Shown here piece by piece: positions 20,476-51,015 of a stretch of DNA of 64,000 nt. Where the stretch lies: positions 4,095 to 68,094 of the forward strand of contig JAUSNP010000006.1 in NCBI GenBank assembly GCA_030645735.1. The letters run 5' to 3'. The position numbers were made by a program, and so were the translations under genes. The stretch is from Candidatus Moraniibacteriota bacterium. Its GTDB lineage: Bacteria > Patescibacteriota > Minisyncoccia > Moranbacterales > UBA2206. The notes below the pieces were generated by a model, which worked only from the letters and a program-made list of their open reading frames with translations, had not been told where the DNA came from and did no database searches. Position 1 is the stretch's first letter; every line of letters begins with the position of its first letter.

Positions 20476-20477
20476 AC

Positions 20478-24585: not shown

Positions 24586-24587
24586 CT

Positions 24588-24629: not shown

Positions 24630-24642
24630 TTATTCTTGACCC

Positions 24643-26246: not shown

Positions 26247-26311
26247 CCGCAAGGCAACCGCGTCCTCTTGCTCTCCCCATCAGGGATGAATTAAAAACCA
26301 CGGAGGTAGTT

Positions 26312-27262: not shown

Positions 27263-27498
27263 CCTAGAAAACTTGGTGAAAGGTAGCTCTCCGCCATATG
27301 GTAAGAGGGTGCATGATAATTGTCAGTGATGTTGAAATTTCACGCGCTGATAAAATAATAGGCCCGGTCTCTTTATAGGGCCACCTGCAATCGCTTTCCA
27401 TTGCCCCTGTTTAGAAAAAGGCGAATGACACAATAGGGTTATAGGGTTAAGGTAGGTTAAGCGTGTCAAACGCCCCTGAGACATAATCTGATAGTTTT

Positions 27499-28068: not shown

Positions 28069-28118
28069 TAGTATGCCCCTTTCCTGATGTTGTTGATAAC
28101 ATTATGACACCGGTTCTA

Positions 28119-29252: not shown

Positions 29253-29255
29253 GGT

Positions 29256-30725: not shown

Positions 30726-31060
30726 GGCTGAATTTTGCTCACGATGATATCGAGGTTATCAACTGGCTCGAAAGCCTGAGCAATGATCATCTCTCGAACC
30801 AATTTATAATCTCTTCCGACATCGACTCGTATTTGATGATCGGTAACCAAACGGATGAACTCGGAAATCAAGGAATCTGGAGTTGCTTCTGAGATCGATA
30901 CAGGCACATTGAAATTTACCTGGATTCTTCCCGCCGATGCAGTTTCGATGACTATCGTCGCTTTCTCTGTGAAATCATAGGAAGCATTCTTTATTGCCTC
31001 CAGAGAATACACTTTAGCGTCGAAACTAGTTGATACCACAACGTTATTCAATCTATTCAA
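30722..31060 (-). CDS. hxsD: Small protein at head of cluster (HxsD-like)
   Basis: 112 aa, translationally coupled (4-nt overlap) to hxsB-like gene; assignment by context. Confidence 0.4.
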   Translation of the reverse strand: MNRLNNVVVSTSFDAKVYSLEAIKNASYDFTEKATIVIETASAGRIQVNFNVPVSISEATPDSLISEFIRLVTDHQIRVDVGRDYKLVREMIIAQAFEPVDNLDIIVSKIQP

Positions 31061-31136
31061 GTTTAGATCCCTGCGAGATTTTTCGCATCTTGCGCCTCAA
31101 CTGAGGGAAACGGCTCGAAACATTCACCAAGTGTAT

Positions 31137-31922
31137 CTAATTTTCGAAAATTCGTCGTGTATCATTAAGCACTGCCCTAAGGAGCACTACTGAGCTTGCA
31201 ACTTGATGCGCAACCTCGTCGTCTGTCATTTTTCTTCCGTTTTCTTTGTAGGCAGCGTTGGCAATGGAGATAGATGAATTGGCAATTTTCACTATTTCCC
31301 GTTTCAAGTCATCCTCAGAAGAAACCACAATCTTTTCAGAAAGAATACCCTTTCCCATGTATGGCAGAACTTCGTCAAACCTCGCATCGAAAGCGCCATG
31401 CGCCTTGCCCGACCATAGCCCTTCGTCATGATAAACTTTACCGTCGCTTGCAGGCTCATCCTTGTAAGGGTAATTATGCAGCGGTTGAGAGAGATCACCT
31501 ATCAGATGTGCGATTGTCATCAGTCCATAATTATAATCTGACGAGTATTTCGTGGTCTTAATTTTCCGATAAAGGTCAACAATTTTCCAATACAAAACAC
31601 CCGATTCCGCTGGCACCATGATCTTAATAGACCGCGACGCCGGATCAGCTTTCGGAACATATTCTTGTTCTGAAACGCCATATTTATCGATATATTCGGG
31701 TGAGACTGCCGTATTCGGAGCCGCATTGTGATAATGGAACTGAACCAACAGGTTGTAATTATCGTACCGTGAAGCGTCGGGGACACAGGCATTTTCCGGA
31801 TCGTCTAAACCTGCTTGATGAGCTATGAAGCTGTGGGTTTGACATGACCATCCATAGCAGATGCTAGCAGGTAACGCCATGAACATCCCGAGCAACACGA
31901 CAGGTTTCATTATTTTGCGCAT
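31137..31922 (-). CDS. Secreted zinc-dependent phospholipase C / S1-P1 nuclease superfamily protein
   Basis: GAGGTG SD; signal peptide then mature N-terminus W-S-C-Q-T-H (Trp-1/His ligands), HYHN, HLIGDLSQPLH zinc-site-like motifs. Confidence 0.5.
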   Translation of the reverse strand: MRKIMKPVVLLGMFMALPASICYGWSCQTHSFIAHQAGLDDPENACVPDASRYDNYNLLVQFHYHNAAPNTAVSPEYIDKYGVSEQEYVPKADPASRSIKIMVPAESGVLYWKIVDLYRKIKTTKYSSDYNYGLMTIAHLIGDLSQPLHNYPYKDEPASDGKVYHDEGLWSGKAHGAFDARFDEVLPYMGKGILSEKIVVSSEDDLKREIVKIANSSISIANAAYKENGRKMTDDEVAHQVASSVVLLRAVLNDTRRIFEN

Positions 31923-31985
31923 TTCCACACCTCGTTGTTTCGGGCCAGGCAGTTCCAAGTACGAACTACCTGGCCGAGGATCAAT

Positions 31986-32162
31986 TTATTTTCCCAAATG
32001 TTTTCTTACTGCTGCGCCGGATGTACCAACAGCTTTTACAGCAGCTTTAAGCTCTTTTTCTGAACAACTGAGGGCCTTACACCAGTTTCTGACCTCAGCC
32101 GGATCATTGATGTCAATGCGTTTTGCATCAAGCGGGTGTGTGATTTTTTTGTTGTCCGTCAT
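31986..32162 (-). CDS. DUF3606-like small protein
   Basis: 58 aa MTDNKKITHPLDAKRIDINDPAEVRNWCKALSCSEKELKAAVKAVGTSGAAVRKHLGK; preferred over overlapping plus ORF 31861..32181. Confidence 0.45.
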   Translation of the reverse strand: MTDNKKITHPLDAKRIDINDPAEVRNWCKALSCSEKELKAAVKAVGTSGAAVRKHLGK

Positions 32163-32472
32163 AACGATCTCCTTGAGTTAACATCTTTATGAAATTCACC
32201 TCGTGGCTTGTACACTTTTCTAAAGCATCAATGGTAATGTTTCCAATGGCACCAGACAACACCTCTCTTATTAATCCCAAATATTATTCCTGGCATCTTA
32301 AAGGACTAATGACCCAGGTCAATAAGGGGATGGTGTAAATTAATAGGGGTTTTCCCTACCAGCGCAATAAGCCATCTCAGGAAGCCACCGACTCACACGA
32401 AAACGTACGGCAACAAACATTGTATGTGTGGGAAATATATTTATGTAACCAGAAATGGTCGTCAAAAAAAAT

Positions 32473-32512
32473 AATCGTCAAAAAGGGAACGTGACTACGT
32501 TCCCTTAATTTT
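32473..32512. repeat. 40-bp direct repeat copy 2
   Basis: aatcgtcaaaaagggaacgtgactacgttcccttaatttt; preceded by partial tandem tcgtcaaaaaaaa. Confidence 0.7.
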
Positions 32513-32768
32513 GTATAAAAACACAGTTAGGCAAGTTCTTTACTGATTGGTTATGATGGCGCTAAAAATTTCGCACAGACAATTAGGAGGACGCGCAAGG
32601 TCAAATTTCGCTCGCAGAGGCTCAGCACACAATCGCTATGGATTGGATTGCGGTGTACAAAGAGTTTTATGATCCAGCAGGGTGCAGATAAATCGTTTGT
32701 TTAGGTCAATCGTAATGCCAATAGAAGAAGCACTCACCGGCTAACAGCTAACGGGATAAGGCGATAGT

Positions 32769-33890
32769 ATGACGACTGATTTCAGTATTAACAAGGTTGT
32801 AATCCACGAGCTAATCAAAGAACAGCACAAGGGAATACAGCCATCAAATATACGGCCCAGTGTTTTAGATGGCAGGAATGAAGCTGTTAAAAAATTAATC
32901 ATGGGCATTACTTCCCTTTACGGAAGACGTAACAATAATGCCCATTATGGCACATTCCGAATAGGCGAAGGTCGCGGTTCATTTCCAGATCATTTTGAAT
33001 CATATGCCCTCGTTATGCCACCCACCGAAGATGTCTTCTTGGCATTGACCCAAATCGCCATGAAATCTTTGTACTCAAAAGCCGAATTAAGCCCTCTAGC
33101 ATCAGGTGGCTACATTTTATTTTGTGACTACTCAAACCAGCAAGGTCGATATTTCTTAACCGCAATGGTCAAGCAAAAAGAAGGCATTAAACTGAGCGAA
33201 GCTTTGGAACCAGAAGAGCTTGTTCAATTAGATTTAAGTCGGCTCCACCAAGCTGCACGAATCAATTTTGGTAAATTATCGGCATATTTAGCGGCAGACG
33301 AAAGAGATCGGCTCGAATTAAGTTATTTAAGTTTCGTAAGCCCACACACAGGCAAAACCGCCGCTGGTTATTTTATAACTGCTCTTGGCTGTGCACCTGG
33401 AGCCGGTTCTGCACGCGCCACAGAGACATTGATTCAGGAGAGCACAAAGTTCTTCAAAGAGAATGAGACGCTACAGCCACACGCCAGAGAGTTCAAAATC
33501 AACCTAATCGCTTACTTGCAAAGAAAAAAAGAGTCCGGTGAGTCCGCAAAGCTTTCGGAAATAGAGGAAATTGCTCGGCCATTTATGCCTGCCGATGAGT
33601 CTGGCCAAGCCGACGACCTTGTAGATGCTTTCATTACTCGCTTAAATAGTGAAGAGCTGGCAGTTCCAATTGAGTTTCCAGTAAGTAAGCGTGCCCTCGG
33701 CAGATATACGCATATAAAATATAAGGCGGACAACTGGGAATTAAACTTTGAGCGAGGGGCACTCGGCAATGACGATACAGCCGACATTTACTATGACACT
33801 GCTCTAAATCGTATCATAATAAATCAAATCCCTACTGGTGCGATTGAATTAATCAAACAAGAACTTGATAGCCGCGTAACTGAGCAATAG
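32769..33890 (+). CDS. Nucleoid-associated protein NdpA/YejK (NA37) family
   Basis: N-terminus INKVVIHELIKEQ...YGTF typical of NA37 family; tentative. Confidence 0.5.
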   Translation: MTTDFSINKVVIHELIKEQHKGIQPSNIRPSVLDGRNEAVKKLIMGITSLYGRRNNNAHYGTFRIGEGRGSFPDHFESYALVMPPTEDVFLALTQIAMKSLYSKAELSPLASGGYILFCDYSNQQGRYFLTAMVKQKEGIKLSEALEPEELVQLDLSRLHQAARINFGKLSAYLAADERDRLELSYLSFVSPHTGKTAAGYFITALGCAPGAGSARATETLIQESTKFFKENETLQPHAREFKINLIAYLQRKKESGESAKLSEIEEIARPFMPADESGQADDLVDAFITRLNSEELAVPIEFPVSKRALGRYTHIKYKADNWELNFERGALGNDDTADIYYDTALNRIIINQIPTGAIELIKQELDSRVTEQ

Positions 33891-33893
33891 ATA

Positions 33894-35114
33894 ATGTCAC
33901 TCTCATATTTTATTGAATTATTTCGAATTGCTGGGAAACCAGCAATTACTGGAGGAATGTTTTATGCGAGTCTAATTTACGACTCAAATGTTTCTAAGCT
34001 CATTACAGAAATACGCAAAATCAAAGCAGCAGTTTATTTCGATGAAATTATCGTCGATGGCTCAGAAATACTCGACACCAATCCACTGCCAGAGACATGG
34101 AGCAAAATTCAATTCACACTCAAGCTACCAGTTGATTCTTCAAGGAGGTTTTATCAATCTATTGAGGATCTAATCAACTGGCCCAAAACCTCAAGAGGTG
34201 AGCTACCTGAGGAATTCTATATAGTTGACCATGATTATTGCAGTGGCGAAGAGCCAATTCCTGCTAAATTGGAAAAATTGCTCAGTATATGTAAGCTTAT
34301 AAAGTCGTTATCATGTCTTGCCAATTATCATGACGAAAAAGCTGAATCTGGATATTACAAATTAGTATTTATCCAATCTAACGATACTCAATATTTGCCA
34401 GCGACAGTCATTGAAACAAAGATAAGTAAAGAAATTCTAGAATTTTCAACCCCAGACATTAGATTGGTTCAGGGCTTATGTTCAGAAACTGCCAAGACTG
34501 ACCCTCATTACAATTTACAGATAGGTGTTTTTTCTGTATCTATTACTGATTTCATGAGCAAATCACCAGGAAATGGACAGTCTTTTTCTTTTCTAATTCA
34601 GAATTGGAAAGATTTCTTAGAAATATACCAACAAAACCTAAGCACATATTTAAGTGGATTTTCTTTTCACAAGGCAAAAAAGGAAGTTGCTGAAACAGAA
34701 CTAAAAATGGCAGAACAGTTTTCTAAAGTAATAAGTGACATCACAATTAAACTATTTAGCATCCCAGTATCATTCGCAGGGGTTATTATTATAGCGAAGC
34801 CAGTTAATGTTATCGAGAGTTCATTAGTTGAAATTGGCCTTATCCTTGCTGCATATCTTATTGATTGTACTGTTGACAACCAGCAACGTCAATTATCTTG
34901 TATAAGTGATGCGAAGAATATCGTCTTAAATTCTTTCGAGGGCAAAAAGGCAAGCTATCCGGATGAACTGAAAGTTGCTGTTAAAGGAATGAAAACCAAA
35001 CTTGACGAAGGAGAAAGAAAACTGCGCCGATCATTAATTTCTTTCCGTGTGTTGAGTTGGTTACCTCCTATTGCCGGCATGGTTCCGCACATTTATTATC
35101 ACTTCCTATCCTAG
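33894..35114 (+). CDS. Hypothetical protein with C-terminal TM segments
   Basis: 406 aa, starts 4 nt after NA37 stop. Confidence 0.4.
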   Translation: MSLSYFIELFRIAGKPAITGGMFYASLIYDSNVSKLITEIRKIKAAVYFDEIIVDGSEILDTNPLPETWSKIQFTLKLPVDSSRRFYQSIEDLINWPKTSRGELPEEFYIVDHDYCSGEEPIPAKLEKLLSICKLIKSLSCLANYHDEKAESGYYKLVFIQSNDTQYLPATVIETKISKEILEFSTPDIRLVQGLCSETAKTDPHYNLQIGVFSVSITDFMSKSPGNGQSFSFLIQNWKDFLEIYQQNLSTYLSGFSFHKAKKEVAETELKMAEQFSKVISDITIKLFSIPVSFAGVIIIAKPVNVIESSLVEIGLILAAYLIDCTVDNQQRQLSCISDAKNIVLNSFEGKKASYPDELKVAVKGMKTKLDEGERKLRRSLISFRVLSWLPPIAGMVPHIYYHFLS

Positions 35115-35185
35115 TGTTTTTATGTGATTTACACAGAATGTAGTGACAGAACGGGCAGAGGTAAAATAAAAACCAGGAGGGTACT

Positions 35186-35422
35186 ATGGCACTTTACAAA
35201 CAAGAACAATATCTGACGAAATCCAATGATGTTGCTTTTGATTCAAAATATTCTCCCGGAACCGCTGCGCCCCACCCCGGAATTTACCGTTGCACATCCT
35301 GTGGAGACGAAATAGCCATAGCTGGCGGACACATTTTGCCACCCCAAAACCACAAGCAACATAATCCTTCAAATGGTGCTGTTCACTGGCAACTATTGGT
35401 ATACCCAGTCCAGAAGAAGTGA
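35186..35422 (+). CDS. Small hypothetical protein with CxxC
   Basis: AGGAGGG SD; 78 aa. Confidence 0.35.
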   Translation: MALYKQEQYLTKSNDVAFDSKYSPGTAAPHPGIYRCTSCGDEIAIAGGHILPPQNHKQHNPSNGAVHWQLLVYPVQKK

Positions 35423-35445: not shown

Positions 35446-35490
35446 GAAAAAACCCCCGACTCATCAATTTGATGAGTCGGGGCTGAGTTT
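35446..35490. terminator. Bidirectional terminator hairpin
   Basis: cccccgactcatca-attt-gatgagtcgggg with T/A runs on both sides. Confidence 0.5.
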
Positions 35491-35510: not shown

Positions 35511-37436
35511 CTACGTTTCCTCCTCCTGCCACAATTTTTCCATCTTCTCTTTTGACCTGTTACTAGGAACTCGCTTGCCGTTTTCCCATGATTGAACCGA
35601 GCTAGGATCAGCCCCAAGCAATTTGGCAATTTCCTTTGTAGAGAGTCCAAGGTGTGTCCGGAAAAGGCGTAATCTTTCACCTTCCGTTTGGGAAGGCTCG
35701 ATAAGGCAATATCCCAGGAAAGAAAATATCTTCGGATAATGCCGGACGGAGGGTGGGTAATGGTTCAACTCCCACTTATTAACCGAACAAGAGTCTACAC
35801 CAATCACTTTGGCCACATCTTTCTGCTCAAGGCCAAGTTCCAACCGTTTTGCTCTCAGATGATCGCCAAGAGTTACTAACTCACTGGGATGCTTGGGATT
35901 TTGAGGCCGGACAGAGGCTTTAGTTACAGGTGACAACTTAGCAATGAAACCATGAGTATTCGTTGCTAAGTTGTTGTCATTTAGAAAAAAGGGGAGGTAG
36001 TGCAGATTGACGGCTACTTCGTCTTTGTGGATGATGATGCTTTCGGTAATGGCTTCCACGATTTGGTGTTGTTCGTCGCGTGACATGATCGACCAACGGG
36101 AATGAAGGTCTTTGGTTTCGGACATAATTTGCTCAGAGGATAGATTCTTAATTTTCAAAAAGTCTATCTCACTCTGGAGTTTAGGAAGCTGGTTGTCCAG
36201 TTGAGCAAAACGCTCTTCAAGAGGTCTGTGTTTTCTCCCGAATCCTTCCTTGGAAATCTGTCCGTCCATGTAGAGGTCATAGAGCTTATCCATCTCCCGC
36301 CCAAGATCGGTTTTTTCTTTTTTCAGGACTTCCAGTTGTTGAGACTTTTCCCGGATCGTGTCATCGGCTTGGTGAAAATAGGTGGCCAGGTCATCCTCAG
36401 AAAGCAGGAAATCCTTGAGCTGTTCTTGGTAAATTGCTTCCAAGTCTTCCGCTGGAATTTTGTTGCGGCACTTTACACATGTGTATTTCTTGCTGCCCGA
36501 AGGCACATACATCTTGCCATCACAATGGCAGAAAGTGAGCCCTGCAAAAAGGTGGGTAGCTGGTTTCCTCGGGATTCTTTTTCCGGACTCTTTCTGATCA
36601 GCCAAAATGGCGTTGCATTTTCCCCAGAGTTCTTCCGTAACAATCGGCTCGACGCTGGAAAAGACCCATTGATCTTCCGGTTTGAGCTCCCAATGTTTCC
36701 TGTCACCAGTACTCCGGGTGTAATTGGCCCGACGCATCCCTTTGGCAATAGGATCGGTAAGGAGCCTATCGACTGTGGTGTCTGTAAATTCTCCACCGTT
36801 ACGAGTCCGATAGCCTCTTTGGTTGAGTAACCTTGCCACGGTCTTTTTCCGCTTATGTTCCAAAAACAATTCGAACATAAGTTGGCGGATGGGAGATTCG
36901 TGAGGATTCACGACCAGGCTTTTGCCTTCCCACTGATAGCCGAAAGGGGCAGCCCCTCCGAGTGGTTTTCCTAATTGTGCCCGGATCGGCACAGAGGCGG
37001 CCACTCGATCACTGATTTCTTCGCGCTCCCATTGGGCCATGGCGGCAATCATTGTGTAAAAAAGTCTACCAGCTGGCGAGGTGGTGTCGATAGCCTCCTG
37101 AAGGGAAATCAGACCGGCATCAGATGATCGAAAGATGTCGGCAATGTCCAGAAGTTCACGGGTATTCCGGGCAATGCGTGCTAACTTTGAAAAAATAATC
37201 CCCGAGATATGCCCAGACCGAATGTCAGCAATCATGCGTTGTGCTTCAGGATGATCCAACACGGATTTACCGCTGACGCCGGAAAGATTGTAGAGCTCAA
37301 CAACATTCCAGTTCTTCGACTGCGCGTAGTATCGAGCGCGTTGTTCGTGGTTTTCGGGGCTTTCCCCCTTGGCTTGATCTTCCGTTGATACCCTAACCCA
37401 GATACCGACACGTTTAGAACTTTGCGGTTTATCCAT
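35511..37436 (-). CDS. Large serine recombinase fused to two C-terminal XRE-type HTH domains
   Basis: VGIWVRVSTEDQ catalytic Ser region, recombinase domain, Cys-pair zinc ribbon CHCDGK...CVKCRNK, coiled coil, then two HTH-like segments. Confidence 0.8.
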   Translation of the reverse strand: MDKPQSSKRVGIWVRVSTEDQAKGESPENHEQRARYYAQSKNWNVVELYNLSGVSGKSVLDHPEAQRMIADIRSGHISGIIFSKLARIARNTRELLDIADIFRSSDAGLISLQEAIDTTSPAGRLFYTMIAAMAQWEREEISDRVAASVPIRAQLGKPLGGAAPFGYQWEGKSLVVNPHESPIRQLMFELFLEHKRKKTVARLLNQRGYRTRNGGEFTDTTVDRLLTDPIAKGMRRANYTRSTGDRKHWELKPEDQWVFSSVEPIVTEELWGKCNAILADQKESGKRIPRKPATHLFAGLTFCHCDGKMYVPSGSKKYTCVKCRNKIPAEDLEAIYQEQLKDFLLSEDDLATYFHQADDTIREKSQQLEVLKKEKTDLGREMDKLYDLYMDGQISKEGFGRKHRPLEERFAQLDNQLPKLQSEIDFLKIKNLSSEQIMSETKDLHSRWSIMSRDEQHQIVEAITESIIIHKDEVAVNLHYLPFFLNDNNLATNTHGFIAKLSPVTKASVRPQNPKHPSELVTLGDHLRAKRLELGLEQKDVAKVIGVDSCSVNKWELNHYPPSVRHYPKIFSFLGYCLIEPSQTEGERLRLFRTHLGLSTKEIAKLLGADPSSVQSWENGKRVPSNRSKEKMEKLWQEEET

Positions 37437-37541
37437 ATTCTCACCCCACCAAAATTGTTAAAGTGCCAGCAATCAGTTTTGTGTTTTTCTCAGTTGGAAT
37501 TGTAACGTCAATTAGCAGACCATCAAAGGCGGTGTTCTTTG

Positions 37542-40500
37542 CTAGCTCTTCATCTTTTTCATTGAGTTTACAATCAGCTTGGCAATTGCGTCCTGCCGTT
37601 GCTTTTGCTGGGCGGCTTCTCCTGCCGTATAGTTCACTCTCACTTTATAACCCCGGATGGTTTTTTGCTGCTCCATTTTTGGGGTCTGTTTTGAGTCAAG
37701 AAACACAATCAGCTCTTCTGGCGAGAGATAACGGATTCTCTCATGAGTGCCAGCATCCAGCACCTCAACTGCCAGTTGACGGATTTTGTTCAGCTGAGAT
37801 TTTTCATGCGAAAGAACCAGTACAGTTTCATATCCGGCGGCCAAACATTTTTGGATATTTTCTAATTCATGAGCAGCCGAGGTGGTCACCGAAATCTCAC
37901 AGGCTAATTTTTCATTCTCTTTCCTAAGGGAAACATCCACGATTCCCGTGCCGCCCAAGACGGATAGCTCGACCTCGGCTTTGTATCCACGCTCTTCTGC
38001 CAAGCGTTTGATGAGCTGCTGAAGGTATCTGTGCTGAACCCCGCCCCGCCCAGAAGTAGGTTGATCAGGTATGGTTGATTTTCTTCGGGCATCATCTTTG
38101 GGTGATTCATTTCGAGGAGATTGTTCAACCGTATTAGGTTGAGCTTCAGACACTCGCTCGACTCTAGACTCTCCATTCTTCTCACCAGCCGGAGGTGGAT
38201 TTTCCGCTTCTAGCATTTCGATTACTTGGCTTTTGGGAGTCCCGTATTTCTCCCTGGATCGATTGACTATGGCCAGTCGAGCTTCGGCATTCTCATTTCT
38301 TTCCGGAAGCGGGAAAGTCCTTAGATTGAAATCGTATTCTGCTTGCTCAATGCGTCCTACGGCTTGGCCAATAGCCAAACTCTGAAGATCCTTGGCATCG
38401 AAAAAAGAAAAGCCACCCGCCAGTTTTACGGCGTCATGATCACCCATGCGAAAGCAGATGCGCGTGTACGGATTGGAAAGTACGGAGCTGGCCACATCGC
38501 GGTCTTTGGACTCTAATTGTCGCAACTCTTGATGAGCCAGAACGAGTCCTAGTCCATATTTTCTGGCTCCGGAGAGAATGCCTTCCATGGAAGGGGTAAT
38601 GAAATTTTGAAATTCATCGATGTACAAGAAAAAGGGCTGCCGCTTTTCTTGCGAAATTGCTTGGCGGCTCAATGCCAATTGATGAATCTTGGCCACGATG
38701 AGGGCACCCAGAAGATATGAGTTCTCTTCGCCGATACCGCCGTGAGAAAGTTTGGCCAAGAAAATCTTTTTCTCATTCATGACTTGGCCAAAGTCGATAC
38801 GGTTTTGTTTCTGTGAGACCATATACCGGATGAGCTTTGGACGTAGAAAGGTATCCAGGCGGGTCAGAACTGGCCCTTGAGGCTTGCCGGTGAGAAGCGG
38901 AAACTCTTTTTCCCAGTAGTAAACAATCTCCTGGTCACGCACGGTTTTTAAATATTTTCGCCGAAAATCCGGTTCAATCAAAAATCGCCGGAGGGTCATG
39001 AGAGTTCCGCCTTCATTACTTTCCAGCATGGCCAAAATTCCATTGGCCAACACTGAATTCATCTGGTCGCCCCAGCTGGTGGACAGTCGGCGAAAGACCC
39101 CGACCAGATCAGAGGCAAGAAGAGTTTTTTCCGTTTCCGAGTGCGCCCCGAAGATATTGAAACCAATCGGGTACTCTTCATCGGTTGGGTCAAACAACAC
39201 TACGTCATCAAGGCGCTGCGGCGGGATAAAGTCCATGATTTGGTCTATTAAATCGCCGTGGGGGTCAAGGACGGCAATTCCGTGGCCATTCTGAATATCT
39301 TGGATGATCAGATTAAGCAGCAGTGTGGATTTACCGGTGCCTGATGCGCCGACGACATACATGTGTCGCAATCTCTGCTCAGAACTGAGCGAGACATTCT
39401 TGATCCGGCCATGGTGGGCATTCTCTCCTAAAAGGAGCTGATGATTTTCTGACAGACCCGGAGCGGCCTTGGTCTTTTTGGCGTTGCGTAAAAACTTTGC
39501 GCTCCTGATCGACGAAGACGGGAAATGGACGAAGTTGATCAACTCATCCAGATTGAGAAGTATTCCGCTCCGGTTGGTCAATCGCCCTACCACATTCTGT
39601 GCATGAATCTCATCGGGATAATCTTTGTTGTGTAGCGGAATGAGGCTATTGCTGCCGGGAGAATTAAATTGAACCAGCGCCCCGCCGAGACTTTTAACGA
39701 TGGAGTTGGCTCTTTGCCGTGATGAACTTTTGGCACCGACTCGGACGACTGCCCCATAGAGAGGTTTCTCAATCTTACTTCTGACACTTTTTGCCAGTTC
39801 GGGGGCATCCGCCAGAAACGGTTTGCCGTTCCAGTCTAGGGCAGCAAATTGCAGACTATCCGCCCACGGACAGCGAGCCGGTAGGAAGATAACTTGAAAA
39901 ATACCGATGTCCGTTTCCTGGCACAGAGACAAGGCACCAATAATTCCAATCAACGGATCGACATCAAATCGGTCAGTACGTTCCAAGGGCAGCATGGATT
40001 CTTGATCCAAGCCGAAATCAACAACAACTGTCTGGTCATTGCGAGGATCTTCCCAGGGGACGGAGAAGAGCCCCTGCTCTTGGGTAATCACAGCCTCGGG
40101 CAGATACGCTTCCAGTTGCGTGAGGATTTCTGGGCGGTCGCGTTGGCGAACAGCCAACTGAACCCAAATTTGGTCGGCAGTGCCGATGAGCTCAAAACAG
40201 ATTGGAAAACGGGAATAACTCAGTGATTGTAGGAATTGATCGGCCAAACGTTTTTTGCATTCATAGGACGGCGGTAGGACAATTTGCAACTCGCAGATTT
40301 CACCTTCGGGAACATACAGGTCGGGCAGATCTTCCGACTCTTCTTCGTAATAGTTGGCGGTGGATTCTTCTGGATTTGGCGATACGGAATTTCGAAATGC
40401 GTCAGCTATCGAGCTAAGAAAGGTGGGCTTCCGCCCGTCATCTATGACTTGGGCTGGCGGAATATAGTGTCCACGAAATGGTTGGAACGGTGGTTCAGGG

Positions 40501-40622
40501 GAGACAGGATAAGGCCAAGTCAAATACCCTCGGGTCCGGTATTCCCAGTCATAGAAGTTTTTAGTGAGAAGCGCGGCCTGGCTTTGCGATGCCGAGCGAT
40601 AGGCTACCGGTGGATCGGCCAT
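37542..40622 (-). CDS. Large (1026 aa) protein with central HerA/DUF87-type P-loop ATPase and C-terminal restriction-endonuclease-like (Mrr-like) domain
   Basis: Walker A GASGTGKSTLLLNLI...VLDPHGD, Walker B FFLYIDEFQNF, ARKYGLGLVLAHQ; C-terminus GYKAEVELSVLGGTGIVDVSL...CEIS...VLVLSHEKS; N-terminal ~400 aa unknown. Confidence 0.5.
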   Translation of the reverse strand: MADPPVAYRSASQSQAALLTKNFYDWEYRTRGYLTWPYPVSPEPPFQPFRGHYIPPAQVIDDGRKPTFLSSIADAFRNSVSPNPEESTANYYEEESEDLPDLYVPEGEICELQIVLPPSYECKKRLADQFLQSLSYSRFPICFELIGTADQIWVQLAVRQRDRPEILTQLEAYLPEAVITQEQGLFSVPWEDPRNDQTVVVDFGLDQESMLPLERTDRFDVDPLIGIIGALSLCQETDIGIFQVIFLPARCPWADSLQFAALDWNGKPFLADAPELAKSVRSKIEKPLYGAVVRVGAKSSSRQRANSIVKSLGGALVQFNSPGSNSLIPLHNKDYPDEIHAQNVVGRLTNRSGILLNLDELINFVHFPSSSIRSAKFLRNAKKTKAAPGLSENHQLLLGENAHHGRIKNVSLSSEQRLRHMYVVGASGTGKSTLLLNLIIQDIQNGHGIAVLDPHGDLIDQIMDFIPPQRLDDVVLFDPTDEEYPIGFNIFGAHSETEKTLLASDLVGVFRRLSTSWGDQMNSVLANGILAMLESNEGGTLMTLRRFLIEPDFRRKYLKTVRDQEIVYYWEKEFPLLTGKPQGPVLTRLDTFLRPKLIRYMVSQKQNRIDFGQVMNEKKIFLAKLSHGGIGEENSYLLGALIVAKIHQLALSRQAISQEKRQPFFLYIDEFQNFITPSMEGILSGARKYGLGLVLAHQELRQLESKDRDVASSVLSNPYTRICFRMGDHDAVKLAGGFSFFDAKDLQSLAIGQAVGRIEQAEYDFNLRTFPLPERNENAEARLAIVNRSREKYGTPKSQVIEMLEAENPPPAGEKNGESRVERVSEAQPNTVEQSPRNESPKDDARRKSTIPDQPTSGRGGVQHRYLQQLIKRLAEERGYKAEVELSVLGGTGIVDVSLRKENEKLACEISVTTSAAHELENIQKCLAAGYETVLVLSHEKSQLNKIRQLAVEVLDAGTHERIRYLSPEELIVFLDSKQTPKMEQQKTIRGYKVRVNYTAGEAAQQKQRQDAIAKLIVNSMKKMKS

Positions 40623-40635
40623 GCTTCACCGACAG

Positions 40636-41172
40636 TTATAGGTTGAAGAAATTACGCATCACTGGCTTCCGATCAGTTTCTGAGAGGACTTTGAGTCCAT
40701 TGGTCTTGGTCATGCCATCCACCACTTCCAACACGGCGCTATGAACCAGGGACTGATACATGCTGGCGGTATCAACGGTGTAATACGTGGTGGTACGGAA
40801 CCATTTTTCCATCAAAGATCCAAGAATCGGAATCCACAGTATGAGTGACCAGAAAAACGAAGGCATTTCTCCCAGCCACCAGGAAATGAAGAAGCCATTG
40901 CCAAAAGGAGCGCCACAAATATCAAAGGTCAGTCTCTTTCTGCGAACACGTAGATATTCCCGTTTTGCAGAAAAGATGCCCCCTTCCTTCCAATCTACAC
41001 GGGAAAACTTGGCCTCGGGGATTAGTTTTGTTTTTAGAGCATTTTGCACATCGTCATAAAATTCTTTCGGCGAAGCAGTCAGGCCTTCGACAAAAGTGCT
41101 CCAGTGGGAAATTACCATGGGGGCTTTGGGCATGGATATTCTCCTTAGCAGAATTTGAAGCCAAAAACGCAC
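40636..41172 (-). CDS. Small membrane protein
   Basis: 178 aa with hydrophobic helices FFISWWLGEMPSFFWSLILWIPILGSL. Confidence 0.4.
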   Translation of the reverse strand: MRFWLQILLRRISMPKAPMVISHWSTFVEGLTASPKEFYDDVQNALKTKLIPEAKFSRVDWKEGGIFSAKREYLRVRRKRLTFDICGAPFGNGFFISWWLGEMPSFFWSLILWIPILGSLMEKWFRTTTYYTVDTASMYQSLVHSAVLEVVDGMTKTNGLKVLSETDRKPVMRNFFNL

Positions 41173-41232
41173 AAAATAGAGTTGGATAGTTACCGATTAC
41201 CAGCGACATTTCAATGACAAAAAGCTGAGACA

Positions 41233-42408
41233 CTAATTTTCTTGGCTACCACAAGGTGATATTGTTACGGCGCTGAATGGGAGGGATGGTTTGCCGTCGA
41301 TCATTAACTTCAGGTAGATATGATAATTAGGTAGGCGCATGAGGTCATGAGAGGTAAATATTCCCTGAAATTCTTTTTCAAGGAAGGTGGCATCTCTGCC
41401 ACCCAAGCGAAAGCAGATGAGTGTTCCGGCGTTTCCAATTACGGCATTCCGGATTTTGACATCCAGCTGGTCAAGGTATTGGTGCGCGAGAATGAGGCCA
41501 ACGTGATACTTTCTGAGTTCTGAAGCCATGTTGACGAGAGAAAGCGTAGTAAACGATTGGAACTCATCGGCATAGAGAGCAAAGTCCCGCCTCTCCTGTT
41601 CAGGGCTATCCGCACGGCTGAAGGCGGCCAGTCCAACCGAAGTCATGAGGAGTCCACCAAGAAGCAAGGAAGCATCTTCACCTAATTTACCCTTGGCCAA
41701 GTTGACCAGCAGAACTTGGCCGTTATCCATAATCCGACGCAAGCTGAGGGCTTGTTTCGGTTCAGTGAGGACTTGCTTGAGAACCGGATTGGCCAGAAAA
41801 GCCCCAATCTTATTTTGAATTGGCGCAATAGCGTCAGCGCGCATCCGGTAAGAATACTTTTCGTACTCTTGGAGCCAGAAAGATTTTACCAGCTCATTCT
41901 CAACCCACTTCAGGGCTTTGTGCCGGTAAGTGGGACTATTGAACAGTTGAAGAATATCGGCGAGAGTGGCATGAGGTTGATCAAGGAGGGTCAGGAGACA
42001 ATTTCGAAAGATGTGTTCCATTCGCACTCCCCAAGCATCACCCCATTGTTTTTTGAAGACCTCAAGGATGCCTGAGGCTAATAATGGGCGGCGCTTGGGT
42101 GAAACATGGCGAATAGGATTGTATCCAATTCCCAGGGTGTTTTCCGCGACATCCCAATAGATCACGCTTGGGTTATTTTTAACTGCCGCATAGATTTTTT
42201 GCGATGAGTCACCGTGAGGGTCGAAAAAAACCAGACCTCTTTGGCTAGAGATGTCTTGAAGGATGAGGTTTTCGAGGAGAGTGGACTTTCCCGTGCCGGT
42301 TTTGCCGATTATGTAAATATGGGATAATCTATCTTTGCTTTTGATGTAGAATTGGAGCTCAGATCCTCGAAAATTGGTTATTCCGATGAGGTATGTTTGT
42401 TTTTTCAT
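41233..42408 (-). CDS. HerA/DUF87-type P-loop ATPase (FtsK/HerA/TraD superfamily)
   Basis: GKTGTGKSTLLENLI...FFDPHGD, Walker B FALYADEFQSF, LRKYHVGLILAHQ. Confidence 0.55.
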   Translation of the reverse strand: MKKQTYLIGITNFRGSELQFYIKSKDRLSHIYIIGKTGTGKSTLLENLILQDISSQRGLVFFDPHGDSSQKIYAAVKNNPSVIYWDVAENTLGIGYNPIRHVSPKRRPLLASGILEVFKKQWGDAWGVRMEHIFRNCLLTLLDQPHATLADILQLFNSPTYRHKALKWVENELVKSFWLQEYEKYSYRMRADAIAPIQNKIGAFLANPVLKQVLTEPKQALSLRRIMDNGQVLLVNLAKGKLGEDASLLLGGLLMTSVGLAAFSRADSPEQERRDFALYADEFQSFTTLSLVNMASELRKYHVGLILAHQYLDQLDVKIRNAVIGNAGTLICFRLGGRDATFLEKEFQGIFTSHDLMRLPNYHIYLKLMIDGKPSLPFSAVTISPCGSQEN

Positions 42409-42889
42409 GCCATTTAATGATAGGAGGACTAGCGTAAGCGTTAAAGGCTGTGAGTTTTGAATGCAAACCTAATTTTTATTGGGTAATATACAAAAAGAGT
42501 GCGAGTGGCGATTTAACAATCCAAAACCTGATGAGCAATTAAAGCTCTTAAAACAGCTAGTTAAAAAATATGGGCTAGTTATCTAGGACAGTCCCAAGAA
42601 CATTATTCAATAAAAGCTGAGTTATTGAGAAAGTCGCGATTTACTAAGCATTCCCATATTGTGTTAACTAGCCGATATTACGGGGCATAACTCTAGCGTC
42701 AAACTTTGCGCAAATATTTGCCGAACTGTGAAGTTCTTAATAAGTATCGAATACTGAATGCGCCACCAGAGGACATTACGTAAATATTATCGTCATCGTC
42801 CACAACGTTACGCATACACACAGTCGTCAATAGAGTGACGGAAACTTGCCGATGGAAACATATTACAAACCTATACCAAAATTATCCTA

Positions 42890-43843
42890 ATGAAATCTCA
42901 AGCGGAACAACTATTAAGTACATCTGTTAAGACTTCAGATGGCCCAGGAATAAGCATTACAACTGCGGCAATCCTGTCAATTGTAATGCCTATTCTTATG
43001 CTTACCATCAGTTTACACATAAAAGACACGAAAAGATTTATTTCATACTCAACAAGCTTCAGCAAAAACGACAACACCAATATTACCATAAAGAACGAGT
43101 CTAAATATTTTATTGATAAAATCGTACTCTCAATTGATTCTAATGGGATTTATCCTGTATCAATAGAAGACTCTAATGGCATAAATTTGATGGCAAAAGC
43201 CACATTGATTGGGAATGTCCCAGATCATGGCAGTGTCAATTCTACAAACAATTTCGCACTCAAAATTGAAAATTTAGCCGGTCATGCTATAATTTCAGTA
43301 GGATTAATTTTTCCAGAAAAGCATGTTAAAATCACTCCCGTAAATTCATTTCCAGAAAACATCCATATTGTAGAAAATACAAATAACACATACTTATATA
43401 ATTGGTATTACTGGTTACCTTACTCAATCATACTGTTGATCTTTGTATATCGTGTTGAGAAATATAGAAAAATAAGAAGAAATGCTATAATATTAGACAA
43501 ATGTATATATTTGATAAACAGAGAATTCCACAACAACACGGAAGATTTTCTAAAGTATACATACGATGATTTATGTAAAAGAATAAAACATATCAACAGT
43601 GCAATCGCATCTGCCCCAAATGAGCTAATTGATTTCAATGATTTTGGATTAAAGAATAGATATATTGTTGGAGACGAAAAAGAATACATTATATTCGCTC
43701 CAAAAACATTAATGGGTCTTCCAACCTTCAGATATCGTTTTGGAAACAGAGAAAGAGTGCTATTATACATAGAGTTCACAAAAAACAATGACCGCCACGA
43801 AATATGCAAGATGGAATATCATCCAATTAACGATTTTTTCTAA
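42890..43843 (+). CDS. Hypothetical membrane protein (very AT-rich)
   Basis: 317 aa ORF with TM segments. Confidence 0.35.
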   Translation: MKSQAEQLLSTSVKTSDGPGISITTAAILSIVMPILMLTISLHIKDTKRFISYSTSFSKNDNTNITIKNESKYFIDKIVLSIDSNGIYPVSIEDSNGINLMAKATLIGNVPDHGSVNSTNNFALKIENLAGHAIISVGLIFPEKHVKITPVNSFPENIHIVENTNNTYLYNWYYWLPYSIILLIFVYRVEKYRKIRRNAIILDKCIYLINREFHNNTEDFLKYTYDDLCKRIKHINSAIASAPNELIDFNDFGLKNRYIVGDEKEYIIFAPKTLMGLPTFRYRFGNRERVLLYIEFTKNNDRHEICKMEYHPINDFF

Positions 43844-43852
43844 TAACTAAAG

Positions 43853-44500
43853 ATGAAATACCAAAAAAGAAAAATTAAGAATATCGGCTTATTTAATCGT
43901 ATAGGGATTAAAGGGAATAAACTTCCGTCTGAAAAGCTGCAACAAATCTATCAATTGTTGCTAAGCAAGGGCTTTAGAGAAACAAGATGGCAGTTTATTT
44001 ACGAGGGACAACTGGCGGGACTGGTAAAACCCTACTCATGTGGAAAAAACGAAATCCATGTTAGGTTTTACGATGACAGAATATTCGCTGAGTTTGAAAT
44101 TGGAAGAGCATATATACAACATTTTCTTGGCCCACGCCTCAATGCAAATGGTTATTTATTCTCTTTGCTAGTGAACCATTTTAGCGAATTGAATGACATC
44201 AAGTGGTTGGAAGAGTTATTTTCCACGGAAAACCAGACTATTGATGAATTGTCTATGCGAATTTGGGACGTCAACAAAACTGAAGACCCTTTTTTATACA
44301 AGAGACAACAAGAAAATATACTACGCGCTAGTACTCTGTTTGTATTATCAAATTTTTTTATTGGTTGGAAATGGGCTTACAGCATCATTGTCATTGGAAT
44401 ATCAATATATGTATTCAAGTTTTCAATAGAGTATCTTGTCTTACTTCCCTTGATGGCTATTCTATTAACTCCTTTTCTGCCACACAAAGGTAAGCCATGA
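43853..44500 (+). CDS. Hypothetical protein with C-terminal TM
   Basis: 215 aa ORF. Confidence 0.35.
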   Translation: MKYQKRKIKNIGLFNRIGIKGNKLPSEKLQQIYQLLLSKGFRETRWQFIYEGQLAGLVKPYSCGKNEIHVRFYDDRIFAEFEIGRAYIQHFLGPRLNANGYLFSLLVNHFSELNDIKWLEELFSTENQTIDELSMRIWDVNKTEDPFLYKRQQENILRASTLFVLSNFFIGWKWAYSIIVIGISIYVFKFSIEYLVLLPLMAILLTPFLPHKGKP

Positions 44501-44530
44501 AACACAATATAAATATAGACAATAACTCAA

Positions 44531-45184
44531 ATGGACTATAAGTCGATTGAATCTTTTTTTAACTTTGACACCATATATGTATTATTAAATCTCCCGCCCC
44601 TTCAGTTTTATTGCGTACTATTCGCCCTTATGTTTTTTAATTCGTTAGTTATGGTTCCACCTAGTGAATATATATGTATTGCCGCCGGAATACTCTTGTC
44701 AACCAAAGGCGATTACAACCTAAACTTAATCATTATAATTGCAACTTTATCAAATTTGCTTGGGACTTTACCGTGGTATTTTCTAGGTAAACGCCATAAA
44801 ACACGCAACAAATCGCTAACTAAAAAAACATTTTCGAAATGGCTTATCATAAATAAAATTATAAATATTTACACAAAAGATTTACAGCACATTGAGAGAT
44901 TATATGAAACCAACGGTTTTTTGCTAGTCTCCATCCTTAGAAATGTCCCAGTCATTAGATCAATTTGCTCATATCCTGCCGGCAGGATTGGTATGGATTT
45001 TACTAGATTTGTCACTTATTCTTTTGTAGGTATTTTGGCATGGGTAACCATTTGGTCTTGTGCTGGTAAATTTATAGGATACACAATCATCAATTACAAT
45101 ATGTATATTTCGTTATCATTTGGTGTAATATCATTTTTAATTTTAAAATTAACGATCAATCTATTAAGGAATAAAGCAATTTAA
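44531..45184 (+). CDS. DedA/VTT-domain family membrane protein
   Basis: LVMVPPSEYICIAAGILL...NVPVIRSICSYPAGRIGMDFTRF pattern of DedA family. Confidence 0.5.
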   Translation: MDYKSIESFFNFDTIYVLLNLPPLQFYCVLFALMFFNSLVMVPPSEYICIAAGILLSTKGDYNLNLIIIIATLSNLLGTLPWYFLGKRHKTRNKSLTKKTFSKWLIINKIINIYTKDLQHIERLYETNGFLLVSILRNVPVIRSICSYPAGRIGMDFTRFVTYSFVGILAWVTIWSCAGKFIGYTIINYNMYISLSFGVISFLILKLTINLLRNKAI

Positions 45185-45239
45185 AAGTCTACAAAACCAC
45201 CGTGATTTAAAACAGTTAATGAAATATTGAAGAAGAATC

Positions 45240-45345
45240 GTCTTTCAAGAGAATTGAATAAATTTGTTTAGCTTCTTTGGCGGTGCATTTTCTCTTTCGG
45301 TAAAGAATTGCCCCTTTCTTTCGATTTGTTGTTCGACAAGGGCAC
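45240..45345. repeat. ~106-bp direct repeat copy A
   Basis: ~90% identical to 52913-53019 (gtctttcaagagaattgaataaatttgtttagcttctttggcggtgcattttc...gttgttcgacaagggcac). Confidence 0.7.
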
Positions 45346-45741
45346 CTGTCAAGGTGGTGTATATTGTGCAGCTAGCAACCCCCAAACAAACGCCTAGTTA
45401 AGACGTTCGTTCGTTTGTTTTAGATGCCCCATAAATACATACCTTAGACATACAATTCCCTCAAGCCTCTCAGGCTTCCATCGACTATCTAAATTCCCTA
45501 TACTTCATTCCTATATTTAGTGTAAAATCAATCTATTGTTTCTCGCATCGGCTTACCGAACTGGTCGAAGTAAGCCATCTAAAATCTAACTTTGCCGTCA
45601 TCGATAGATCCCTTGCGTGCTTTGTTCATAAGATTTCATTTGAAAAGCTAGTGATGCGAACGAATATCGATAGACATGGCAACATTGACTTTATTGCTCA
45701 AAAAGCTATGCTTAAGTGATTAATAGAATAATTAAATAGTT

Positions 45742-46440
45742 ATGCAAAAAAAAGTTTTGAATGCAGTTATTTTCTCAGCAGTTGTCCTGTCTGCCAGTGT
45801 TGGTTTTTTTATATTGATAAACATAAAAGGTCCACAAGATCCAAATATAAATCATAAACAAGAACAAACAGAACATGTACAGGAAAGACCTGAGGATATT
45901 TTTGTTCGCAATGTTGATATTTCAAGATGGACGACATACAAAAACGAAGAACAAGGAATTGAGTTTAAGTATCCCGAGAAATTGTTTGATTTAAAAATAG
46001 ATGGTGATGATCATTCTGGTTCTATGGAGTTGGTTAATATAAATAATTCTAGAATTTGGCTTACTCAAAAAGGATTTTCAGTAAATGACACTGAACATAG
46101 GATTATTATAAATATCAACTCCCTTAAAACTATCAAAGAATATTATGTGGAAAAAGATGGCAAATGCAACTCCGTATCGGTATCAAATATTAAAGGAAAG
46201 ATATGTGGATACGAAAGCGGTTCTAAATACGAGGAAGATATTTTTAAAGATTCTATGAATCGTTATTTATCACTAATCAATGACGGTGTGTGTAATGGAC
46301 AATTTACAGTTTTTACAAATGAAATAAGAATAAAAAATGCTGGTGATTTTACTAGTAGTATCAATGTCGGTTGTAACGATGATTTTGTAATGGAAAAAAT
46401 TTATCAGGCTATATATAAATCTATCCATTTTTCTAAATAG
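45742..46440 (+). CDS. Secreted hypothetical protein
   Basis: N-terminal signal/TM; 232 aa. Confidence 0.4.
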   Translation: MQKKVLNAVIFSAVVLSASVGFFILINIKGPQDPNINHKQEQTEHVQERPEDIFVRNVDISRWTTYKNEEQGIEFKYPEKLFDLKIDGDDHSGSMELVNINNSRIWLTQKGFSVNDTEHRIIININSLKTIKEYYVEKDGKCNSVSVSNIKGKICGYESGSKYEEDIFKDSMNRYLSLINDGVCNGQFTVFTNEIRIKNAGDFTSSINVGCNDDFVMEKIYQAIYKSIHFSK

Positions 46441-46544
46441 AACCTTATTTAGTTAACTAGTTTATATTTAATAATAATACATTTGCAGATTCACAAAACT
46501 GTGAGTCTATTTTTGAGGTTCTCTGACAAGAGGAGGATTTAATT

Positions 46545-48629: not shown

Positions 48630-48920
48630 TTAAGTTTATCTAAGATTATTCCACCTGCCGCTCGGTGACCTTATGTCATCGGGCGGCACTTTTATAATAA
48701 TTCAAGCAACTTCCGTTCCTTGTCATTTCAATTTGCTTCTGATAATATTTAAATATCTTTCGCTCATCCTTTTTGTTATACCTCCTTTTTATATCGCTAC
48801 GACAGATAGGTACGCATTATGTTTTTTTCGACTTGCTACTGAGCAAGGGGGGTGATTGTTTTGAATCTCGTTTTAAATCCTCCATCCCGTATACAGGATG
48901 AAATTATAGGAAAAACTTTT

Positions 48921-51002: not shown

Positions 51003-51015
51003 GCGTCACGACGAT

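Follow-up and report, generated by a model that had tools for sequence, protein, structure and literature searches.

Paired coupling-type ATPases, a small partner protein and a serine integrase as a candidate mobilisation module of integrative elements in uncultured bacteria

What is the function of a co-oriented gene block that brings together two related ATPases, a small protein and a serine recombinase? The block is found on a contig of a Candidatus Moraniibacteriota bacterium (GenBank assembly GCA_030645735.1, contig JAUSNP010000006.1). The stretch analysed here comprises 64,000 nt of that contig (positions 4,095 to 68,094, forward strand) and is referred to as the window; the four genes are named A, M, B and R in the order of transcription. 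An earlier reading of the same DNA, made without database searches (the sequence-only reading), had described the four genes, the sizes of M and B, the ATPase motifs and the fusion of the recombinase to a helix-turn-helix (HTH) domain, all of which were confirmed by the open reading frames (ORFs), by the motifs found in A and B and by the Pfam matches of R. It had proposed an FtsK/TraB-like apparatus for transfer of double-stranded DNA or a HerA-based anti-phage system. We favour a modified form of the first proposal: A-M-B(-R) is the mobilisation or coupling module of an integrative mobilisable element (IME), to which we assign a probability of roughly 0.55. Apparently the module represents a widespread and undescribed family of small integrating elements in uncultured bacteria; no description of such an A-M-B-R element family was found in the literature.

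The intergenic gaps are 60 nt (A-M), 13 nt (M-B) and 105 nt (B-R). The G+C content of the four-gene block is 0.47-0.50, as compared with 0.33-0.42 in the flanks. Besides a palindrome inside R and the terminator-like hairpin, the repeat finder detected only short direct or inverted repeats at chance level bounding the module, and an Rfam scan of 34-44 kb gave no match. The coordinates of all features are collected in Table 1.

The motifs of A are GKTGTGKSTLLENLILQDI...DPHGD, YADEFQSF and LRKYHVGLILAHQ, with Walker A and Walker B intact; those of B are GASGTGKSTLLLNLIIQDI...DPHGD, YIDEFQNF and ARKYGLGLVLAHQ. The quoted motif residues, K431, D669 and E670 of B among them, are invariant across the 70 B homologues used for residue conservation and for structure modelling. 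A shows 32% amino acid (aa) sequence identity to B residues 397-749. In Pfam, A scores above cut-off with DUF87 (33.3 bits) and TrwB_AAD_bind (28.4 bits). B also exceeds the DUF87 cut-off, and it scores 51.8 bits with TrwB_AAD_bind (cut-off 20.5), 32.1 bits with TraG-D_C (cut-off 22) and 29.9 bits with T4SS-DNA_transf (cut-off 20.1). FtsK_SpoIIIE stays below its cut-off of 24 in both proteins (A 19.5 bits, B 16.4 bits) with a match confined to the P-loop, and no DNA-recognition winged HTH domain was found in this copy. Pfam AAA_10 and CagE_TrbE_VirB gave no match in A or B. A Foldseek search of PDB with the B model retrieved TrwK/VirB4 of R388 as top match (E 2e-11, ~850 aligned columns), followed by HerA, TrwB (1gl6/1gl7, TMt 0.65-0.67), DotL and Cag-beta; the HerA defence complexes 8xaw and 8zit are also among the ATPase matches. 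Since TrwB_AAD_bind, TraG-D_C and T4SS-DNA_transf are above cut-off and FtsK_SpoIIIE is below it, the profile scores and the model place A and B in the TrwB/TraD/VirB4 clade and not in FtsK/TraB. Thus the transfer part of the first proposal is kept, as mobilisation or coupling, and the FtsK/TraB part is dropped.

B was modelled with AlphaFold2 (AF2) at a mean predicted local distance difference test (pLDDT) of 81.8. The model divides into an N-domain (aa ~100-395), the ATPase (~396-775), a disordered linker (~810-857) and a C-domain core (862-937). Modelled alone, the N-domain reaches pLDDT 86.5 and a predicted TM-score (pTM) of 0.83, and all ten of its top Foldseek matches in PDB are TrwK/VirB4 of R388 (E 1e-4 to 1e-3, probability >=0.99). 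The TM-scores of the TrwK/VirB4 matches of the whole model and the N-domain are just 0.25-0.36, with a root-mean-square deviation (rmsd) of 8-15 Å. A weak precomputed match to DUF8128 is on record for the N-domain. The HAS-barrel of HerA is not seen in B; the N-domain matches VirB4 instead.

In the AF2 model, the C-domain core shows alpha-beta-beta-beta-alpha-beta topology at pLDDT ~90, and a conserved RGYKVKV tail follows it and ends the protein. Residues E885, D896, E909, E919, N922 and K925 are invariant. Searching BFVD with the B model gave small, weak matches to viral Mrr, PD-(D/E)XK and "endonuclease" proteins, which were allotted to the C-domain by match size. An alignment of the C-domain with Replic_Relax by hhalign indicated no relation. 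On these weak structural matches, the C-domain may adopt a PD-(D/E)xK/Mrr-like nuclease fold with putative catalytic competence. The Mrr-like label given in the sequence-only reading thus gains from the predicted topology, from D896/E909/K925 and from the structural matches, and finds no significant sequence match to back it. A search of 1.84 billion representative sequences with the C-domain produced 1600 matches. Among the 150 listed, the domain is C-terminal in proteins of B length or in fragments with one exception, and the two that were read are B-like. The exception (P0257, 530 aa) has an HTH_17/excisionase-like N-terminus followed by two tandem B C-domains. Two B homologues (P0039 and P0111) end in HTH_17 in place of the usual tail. 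Judged by their domain make-up, P0257 and the HTH_17-ended homologues appear to link the C-domain to DNA recognition.

The gene context of the module was surveyed by scanning one genome per species, which yielded 80 loci, nearly all from metagenome-assembled genomes (MAGs), with 10-kb flanks; the four window proteins were mapped onto the loci and all ORFs were clustered. Nearly every locus with upstream sequence has an M homologue directly before B, and the M-B gap ranges from -41 to +24 nt in 49 of 50 loci. The M-B pairing is obligate, and M appears to be translationally coupled to B. M itself found no match in Pfam, NCBIfam, PADLOC, PHROGs or PDB (including a PDB profile search), and no similarity to TcpE (VirB3-like) of a Bacillus plasmid was detected by hhalign. 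It carries two to three transmembrane (TM) segments at most. Two clear TM-like segments occur in 35 of the 59 members of the M family, inserted at the place where the window copy has a marginal stretch, so the earlier description of M as a membrane protein suits the family better than the window copy.

There are more than 3000 B homologues, spread across many phyla; the top 120 all have a length of ~1030 aa and an identity of at least 48%. The 80 loci come from Acidobacteriota, Verrucomicrobiota, Bacteroidota, Planctomycetota, Gemmatimonadota, Binatia, Eisenbacteria, Desulfarculus, three lineages of the Candidate Phyla Radiation (CPR) and others. Of 72 loci, 29 have an R homologue downstream of B, which is directly adjacent in 20; these R proteins are 45-65% identical, and up to 87% in the nearest relatives. 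An A homologue, sometimes inverted, was located 0-9 kb upstream of M-B in at least 16 loci, and the genes that separate the two vary. Recurrent families in the A-M interval are Replic_Relax (nine proteins), DnaG-type primase (six), ArdC (four) and RadC (three), all of them typical of conjugative or mobilisable elements, and ParA/ParB, SIR2 and a STAND NTPase were each seen as single instances. Type I restriction-modification genes adjoin M-B in several loci. A compact A-M-B(-R) layout is also found in L082, L083, L088, L049, L057 and L026, and exactly the window arrangement A-M-B-R occurs in one Desulforudis MAG and two metagenome contigs. Because M-B-R co-occur, the interval genes vary and the compact module is the only part shared, A, M and B form the backbone of a mobile element and are not its cargo.

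The window and the Desulforudis MAG share 76% nucleotide identity, confined to window positions 35941-42422, while the flanks are unrelated. For the copies in this MAG and in the two metagenome contigs together (L082 8192-14689, L083 and L088) the identity of the segment is ~75%. Taken at face value, such identity between very distant lineages points to transfer in the fairly recent past, or to mis-binning. In L088, A is inverted relative to M-B-R and the alignment breaks at the same point, 14 nt upstream of A. The cargo upstream of A differs between the nearest relatives (L082 2243-7868; L083 868-3299): one of them carries an HSP70-like gene with two partners and a Ppx-GppA phosphatase gene, and L082 and L083 both have a staphylococcal-nuclease gene beside a MarR regulator.

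The target of integration was deduced from 13 junctions in relatives of the window module. R matches Pfam Resolvase (107.9 bits), Recombinase (71.1 bits), Zn_ribbon_recom (weakly) and two HTH_3/HTH_31 (XRE-type) domains; its NCBIfam matches to CcrB and XisF are below threshold. The palindrome within the R gene has 16-nt arms that are 94% complementary (repeat finder). In nine loci (L002-L004, L023, L029, L043, L055, L072 and L082) the neighbour of R on the opposite strand is a 5' fragment of the competence gene comM/yifB that breaks off within the Mg_chelatase domain; in seven of the nine, the ORFs of R and of the truncated comM have an overlap of exactly 29 nt. In four loci (L011, L017, L022 and L039) the comM fragment is the 3' one, and it abuts a separate gene that encodes a double-HTH protein. 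These proteins (family f15) are 145-162 aa long and match window positions 35532-35930, that is, R residues 503-635. At the R/comM 5' junction, ...GGCAACGCAACCTCA(A/C)GG is followed by GTTCATGGCGGCGGCAAGCAT, and this right half is antisense to comM M-L-A-A-A-M-N-P. At the HTH/comM 3' junction, CCACAAGGACA, which is antisense to comM C-P-C-G, is followed by ..ACCTGCGTTGCC... From the two junction types, attB is placed at ...AAMNP/CPCG... of comM. The attP of the comM-integrated lineages is the palindrome GGCAACGCA ... TGCGTTGCC, which falls near codon 500 of the recombinase gene.

In all four unsplit R genes examined (window, L005, L065 and L037) a palindrome is present at the same codons, and the arm sequences differ; such same-codon palindromes with different arms are the pattern that a conserved protein-binding site would show. 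The DNA alignment of the window with L082, L083 and L088 extends to 35941, and the relatives become antisense comM just past the centre of the palindrome. The junctions of the integrated loci are consistent with recombination at the R-internal palindrome. Taken together, the sites deduced in this way show comM targeting through an attP within R's own gene. Given the split R and HTH genes at the comM junctions, integration truncates R to ~500 aa; its double-HTH tail comes to lie at the far end of the element and persists there as a separate gene. As the elements are longer than the 10-kb flanks, no one locus includes both of their ends. In L003 the HTH gene does not adjoin a comM fragment. L051 (19430-21389) differs in that the 3' part of comM lies downstream of the recombinase and shares its strand (elsewhere the 5' part on the opposite strand), a layout that would imply insertion in reverse orientation or a lineage with a reversed attP. 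No circular form was seen in the 7.1-kb contig L088, which has no terminal overlap and ends in a comM junction. The R-internal attP and the comM targeting of the family had been missed in the sequence-only reading.

Annotated plasmids offer the closest functional context for B. A full-length B homologue was found neither in PLSDB (72,556 plasmids) nor among the INPHARED phages. The nearest plasmid relatives are DUF87 proteins of 886-913 aa from small Bacillus plasmids (for example NZ_OX419581 and NZ_CP032854), which align to B residues 221-758 with E 4e-28 and 22% identity. In the two plasmids examined, the DUF87 gene is followed by a replication-relaxation family gene and then by a Tcp-like cluster with TcpC, TcpD, TcpE and its own AAA_10 VirB4-type ATPase. 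The B-like protein is therefore taken to sit in the coupling-protein position, next to a replication-relaxation gene and a Tcp-like pore that has a VirB4 of its own. No experimental study of these DUF87 proteins was found in the literature. The coupling protein of pLS20 was considered as the nearest studied relative and rejected, as the matching Bacillus plasmids carry a different, Tcp-like system. The ATPase domains of A and B also match TraG-like proteins of Sulfolobus and haloarchaeal plasmids. The best plasmid match of A (47%) is on a Sulfitobacter plasmid beside a serine recombinase and DUF3768, in a locus that is otherwise interrupted by insertion sequences.

We propose the following scheme. 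R is the integrase and in relatives recombines its own internal attP with the comM codons ...A-A-M-N-P/C-P-C-G.... B would be a translocase-type ATPase, presumably hexameric, that moves DNA, with A as a second, partner ATPase. M may hold B at the membrane and so provide the anchoring that is built into canonical coupling proteins. Through its PD-(D/E)xK-like C-domain, B could recognise or cut the DNA of the excised element, and this DNA would then most likely go to a mating pore provided in trans. The absence of mating-pore genes makes a mobilisation module of this sort likelier than a self-sufficient apparatus.

A number of results weigh against this scheme. The window lacks a relaxase, an oriT and any mating-pore gene, and none of the three is universal among the relatives. 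Profile scores for dedicated transfer families are low: 47.5 bits for NCBIfam SXT_TraD (cut-off 366), 43.5 bits for conju_CD1115 (cut-off 250) and 21.8-27.6 bits for the VirB4 model TIGR00929 (cut-off 643), and the NCBIfam models of Ced proteins likewise match far below their cut-offs. In structure, the N-domain resembles VirB4 to a modest degree (TMq ~0.35, rmsd ~8.8 Å). A hydrophobicity scan of A and B revealed no N-terminal TM-like segment, which canonical coupling proteins have; the hydrophobicity peaks, at aa 224 of B (N-domain) and aa 246 of A (ATPase), fall within folded domains. The window M, the proposed anchor, is weakly hydrophobic, with its single marginal stretch at aa 103-121 (Kyte-Doolittle 1.59). 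The C-domain has no significant sequence match to any nuclease family (phmmer and profile searches against PDB; Pfam with 18 members), its (D/E)xK position reads E-I-S, and the invariant K925 sits on the next helix. An ATPase joined to a nuclease also follows the logic of HerA-based defence systems. PHROG 5156 matches both A and B, and BFVD holds full-length structural relatives of B in the large Bacillus phages G, JL and 0305phi8-36 (G3MBM2/G3MBM1, which are gp156/gp155 of phage G; S5MSQ0 of phage JL; and A7KUX5). Shorter CPR relatives of B (~750-820 aa, 30% identity) lie amid housekeeping genes with no transfer genes nearby; there, the same protein type may serve a chromosomal and non-mobile role.

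Two side observations concern these relatives. The phage G proteins gp155 and gp156 are an adjacent pair of paralogous ATPases, reminiscent of A and B. The short CPR proteins (L075-L081, from Falkowbacteria, Peregrinibacteria, Abawacabacteria and other CPR) consist of the N-domain and an A-like ATPase and lack the C-domain; their neighbours include dnaX and tRNA synthetase genes, and several of the loci hold multiple copies of a ~560-aa paralogue family.

If the pore is not supplied in trans, A, M and B might themselves be a minimal DNA-transfer machine and the ~7-kb element self-transmissible without any other pore, in the manner of Streptomyces TraB or of crenarchaeal conjugative plasmids with two recognisable ATPase homologues only. 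These three are the sole non-integrase genes common to all members, and the compact elements carry no others; a pair of paralogous VirB4/VirD4-clade ATPases with a membrane partner resembles a type IV energy centre; the family spans very different cell envelopes, CPR included; and the Sulfolobus TraG-like proteins matched by the ATPase domains belong to conjugative plasmids. Such a machine would have to work without a VirB6-like polytopic channel protein, a cell-wall hydrolase or an adhesin, and with an M whose few TM segments are reduced to one weak stretch in the window copy. The nearest plasmid relatives coexist with a full Tcp-like pore, and we know of no precedent for crossing both envelopes of a diderm cell with A-M-B-like parts alone. 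We consider this reading unlikely. Its boldest version is more doubtful still: A, M and B would form a complete, envelope-independent DNA-export machine, the nuclease-like domain would replace the relaxase, the attP-in-gene switch would couple integration state to recombinase make-up, and the ~7-kb four-gene element would transmit itself across phyla including CPR. If true, it would be the smallest known self-transmissible integrative element.

The second proposal of the sequence-only reading was defence: an anti-phage, anti-plasmid or exclusion module in which a HerA-like translocase feeds foreign DNA to the PD-(D/E)xK domain, modelled on HerA-SIR2, HerA-DUF4297 and DndH/SspH-type systems. 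PADLOC returned mad8 (E 3e-17 and 7e-15), HerA models (E ~1e-5) and the DndH C-terminus (E 8e-6), Foldseek found 8xaw and 8zit, a nuclease-like domain is fused to the ATPase, and an OLD-family gene lies ~6 kb away. The PADLOC matches are restricted to the common ATPase core, with the HerA models spanning ~45 residues around Walker A, and the partner genes of the matched systems, for HerA a SIR2, DUF4297 or NurA gene, were not found by PADLOC. MADS is an eight-gene mad1-mad8 operon that includes a methyltransferase (10.1101/2023.03.30.534895); here the other mad models gave only mad1 on the HTH of R and mad3 on the P-loop of A (E 0.04 each), and no further mad gene is present. A-M-B co-vary with the integrase as an invariant backbone, and the type I restriction-modification, SIR2 and STAND genes are the variable cargo. 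Homologues fill the coupling-protein slot of conjugative plasmids, and the N-domain matches VirB4, with no HAS-barrel of HerA seen. With generic P-loop matches only and genes that behave as backbone, we find the defence reading quite unlikely. Lower again, at the level of a slim chance, we rate a role of A-M-B in maintaining the excised element, by replication initiation or resolution, by partition, or by packaging into a capsid or vesicle as with the FtsK/HerA-type packaging ATPases of membrane-containing viruses. The phage and PHROG 5156 relatives fit this role, as do a weak PHROG large-terminase match at the P-loop and the primase and Replic_Relax genes that accompany the module in relatives. 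The compact elements, on the other side, have no capsid, portal or replication-initiator gene, PHROG 5156 has no assigned function, the terminase match covers ~40 residues around Walker A, and the strongest family and context signals are those of coupling proteins. According to the sequence-only reading, clear TraD/VirD4 homology together with a relaxase would have made the locus an ordinary conjugation module. The homology is present at the level of domains, and relaxase-like genes (Replic_Relax) occur in relatives. Because the coupling-protein homology is domain-level and the window has no relaxase, the module cannot be called ordinary conjugation.

If the mobilisation reading is correct, the family has escaped notice in spite of its very large size (>3000 B homologues and, for the C-domain, 1600 cluster representatives), in host lineages that collections of cultured plasmids cover poorly. 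Soil and groundwater phyla and CPR would then exchange genes through its compact elements, with restriction-modification systems and other defence functions among the cargo. With B joining a VirB4-like N-domain to a coupling-type ATPase, the family also bears on the kinship of VirB4 and coupling proteins. The loss of the DNA-binding tail of R on integration into comM would amount to a built-in switch and could serve as a part for genome engineering.

In the window, R is unsplit, the attP palindrome is intact and no comM fragment was found, which together indicate that the module was not inserted here via its own attP. The positive GC skew that is strong elsewhere in the window is lost across ~17-52 kb. 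A second serine recombinase lies at the left edge of this stretch, antisense to a tRNA-Lys gene, and appears from this overlap to repeat the att-inside-gene design, here in the recombined state; second-type recombinases are also found within the related elements L002 and L048. No second copy of tRNA-Lys marking a far end was detected, and the right edge of the island was not found. The simplest reading is that a composite island entered tRNA-Lys via the second recombinase and carries A-M-B-R as a passenger that may still be competent. Other genes between the two recombinases (~19000-35400) code for an AP2-domain protein, a metallo-beta-lactamase, an S1/P1 nuclease and an NA37 nucleoid protein. 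The RadC, DUF3768, DprA-like and PHROG-matching genes of the island, together with the second recombinase, give the module a mobile setting that speaks for the mobilisation reading. To the right of the module (within 42890-52854), the OLD-family gene and its 622-aa partner may be a defence pair, and an M23/CARDB protein is also encoded there.

Table 1. Features of the A-M-B-R module and of the surrounding island (window coordinates).
Feature	Position	Strand	Description
A	41233-42408	minus	391 aa; soluble TrwB/DUF87-type ATPase, paralogue of the B ATPase domain
M	40636-41172	minus	178 aa (165-aa start according to other callers); orphan protein paired with B
B	37542-40622	minus	1026 aa; multidomain ATPase
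B N-terminal domain	39438-40622	minus	aa 1-395; DUF8128; predicted VirB4-N-domain-like fold
B ATPase domain	38298-39437	minus	aa ~396-775; TrwB/TraD/VirD4-type with alpha-helical insert
B C-terminal domain	37545-38051	minus	aa 858-1026; putative PD-(D/E)xK/Mrr-like fold and RGYKVKV tail
R	35511-37436	minus	641 aa; large serine recombinase with C-terminal double XRE-HTH; un-recombined configuration
attP-like palindrome within R	35933-35974	minus	codons ~489-502; ACAACTTAGCAA-CGAATACTCATGGTTTCA-TTGCTAAGTTGT
Double-HTH-encoding part of R	35514-35930	minus	aa ~503-641; separate gene at opposite element end in integrated relatives
Terminator-like hairpin	35454-35482	.	bidirectional, closes the operon; 13-bp stem then GTTTTTTC on minus strand
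Degenerate partial tRNA-like remnant	17267-17318		just upstream of tRNA-Lys
Second serine recombinase	17309-18841	minus	510 aa; left edge of the stretch of lost GC skew
tRNA-Lys	17345-17419	plus	antisense to last ~30 codons of second recombinase
DprA-like	21175-22098		
RadC	23627-24115		
DUF3768	24160-24585		
Two radical-SAM genes	28119-30725		
Two PHROG-matching genes	33894-35422		
OLD-family gene	48852-51002		AAA_15 and TOPRIM
Partner of OLD-family gene	50986-52854		622 aa

How does the module compare with known systems? Integrative mobilisable and conjugative elements are a known kind; four features of the A-M-B-R family are new, namely one protein that combines a VirB4-like N-domain with a coupling-type ATPase and a nuclease-like domain, the presence of M as an orphan partner, a second ATPase besides B, and a serine integrase remodelled by its own integration. 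With the type IV coupling proteins (TrwB of R388, TraD and VirD4), A and B share the TrwB-type nucleotide-binding domain with its alpha-helical insert, and relatives adjoin a relaxase-like gene. Unlike them, B has no N-terminal TM domain and carries a 400-aa VirB4-like N-domain and a nuclease-like C-domain; M is separately encoded upstream, and the NCBIfam equivalog scores are far below cut-off. By its predicted fold, B may share with VirB4/TrwK the make-up of an N-domain and an ATPase, and TrwK is the best structural match of the whole model and of the N-domain. The virB3 gene precedes virB4, and here too a gene for a small membrane-type protein lies directly upstream of the ATPase gene. The module differs from VirB4/VirB3 in that B has neither AAA_10 nor CagE_TrbE_VirB, no similarity of M to TcpE was detected, and the other pore components are absent. 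In the DUF87 proteins of the Bacillus Tcp clusters, homology to B covers the latter half of the N-domain and the complete ATPase; the proteins are similar to B in length, and the replication-relaxation gene that follows them is the most frequent accessory of the module. Their plasmids carry a complete pore and have no M homologue upstream and no serine integrase, and a PD-(D/E)xK-like C-domain was not detected in the DUF87 proteins.

IMEs are small integrated elements with an integrase, their own coupling protein and relaxase and no pore genes, and they are site-specific for a conserved gene. The A-M-B-R element is likewise small and integrated, with an integrase, a coupling-type ATPase, no pore genes and a conserved-gene target. 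It differs in that the window element has no recognisable relaxase, that there are two ATPases and M, and that a nuclease-like domain is fused to the ATPase; the family is found almost entirely in uncultured lineages. In SSV1 and mycobacteriophage BPs, both with tyrosine integrases, attP lies within a coding sequence of the element and integration alters the product. R has the same design, as its attP is internal and integration removes the double-HTH tail. In contrast to SSV1 and BPs, R is a large serine recombinase whose catalytic part stays intact, and the detached part is kept as an ORF at the far end of the element.

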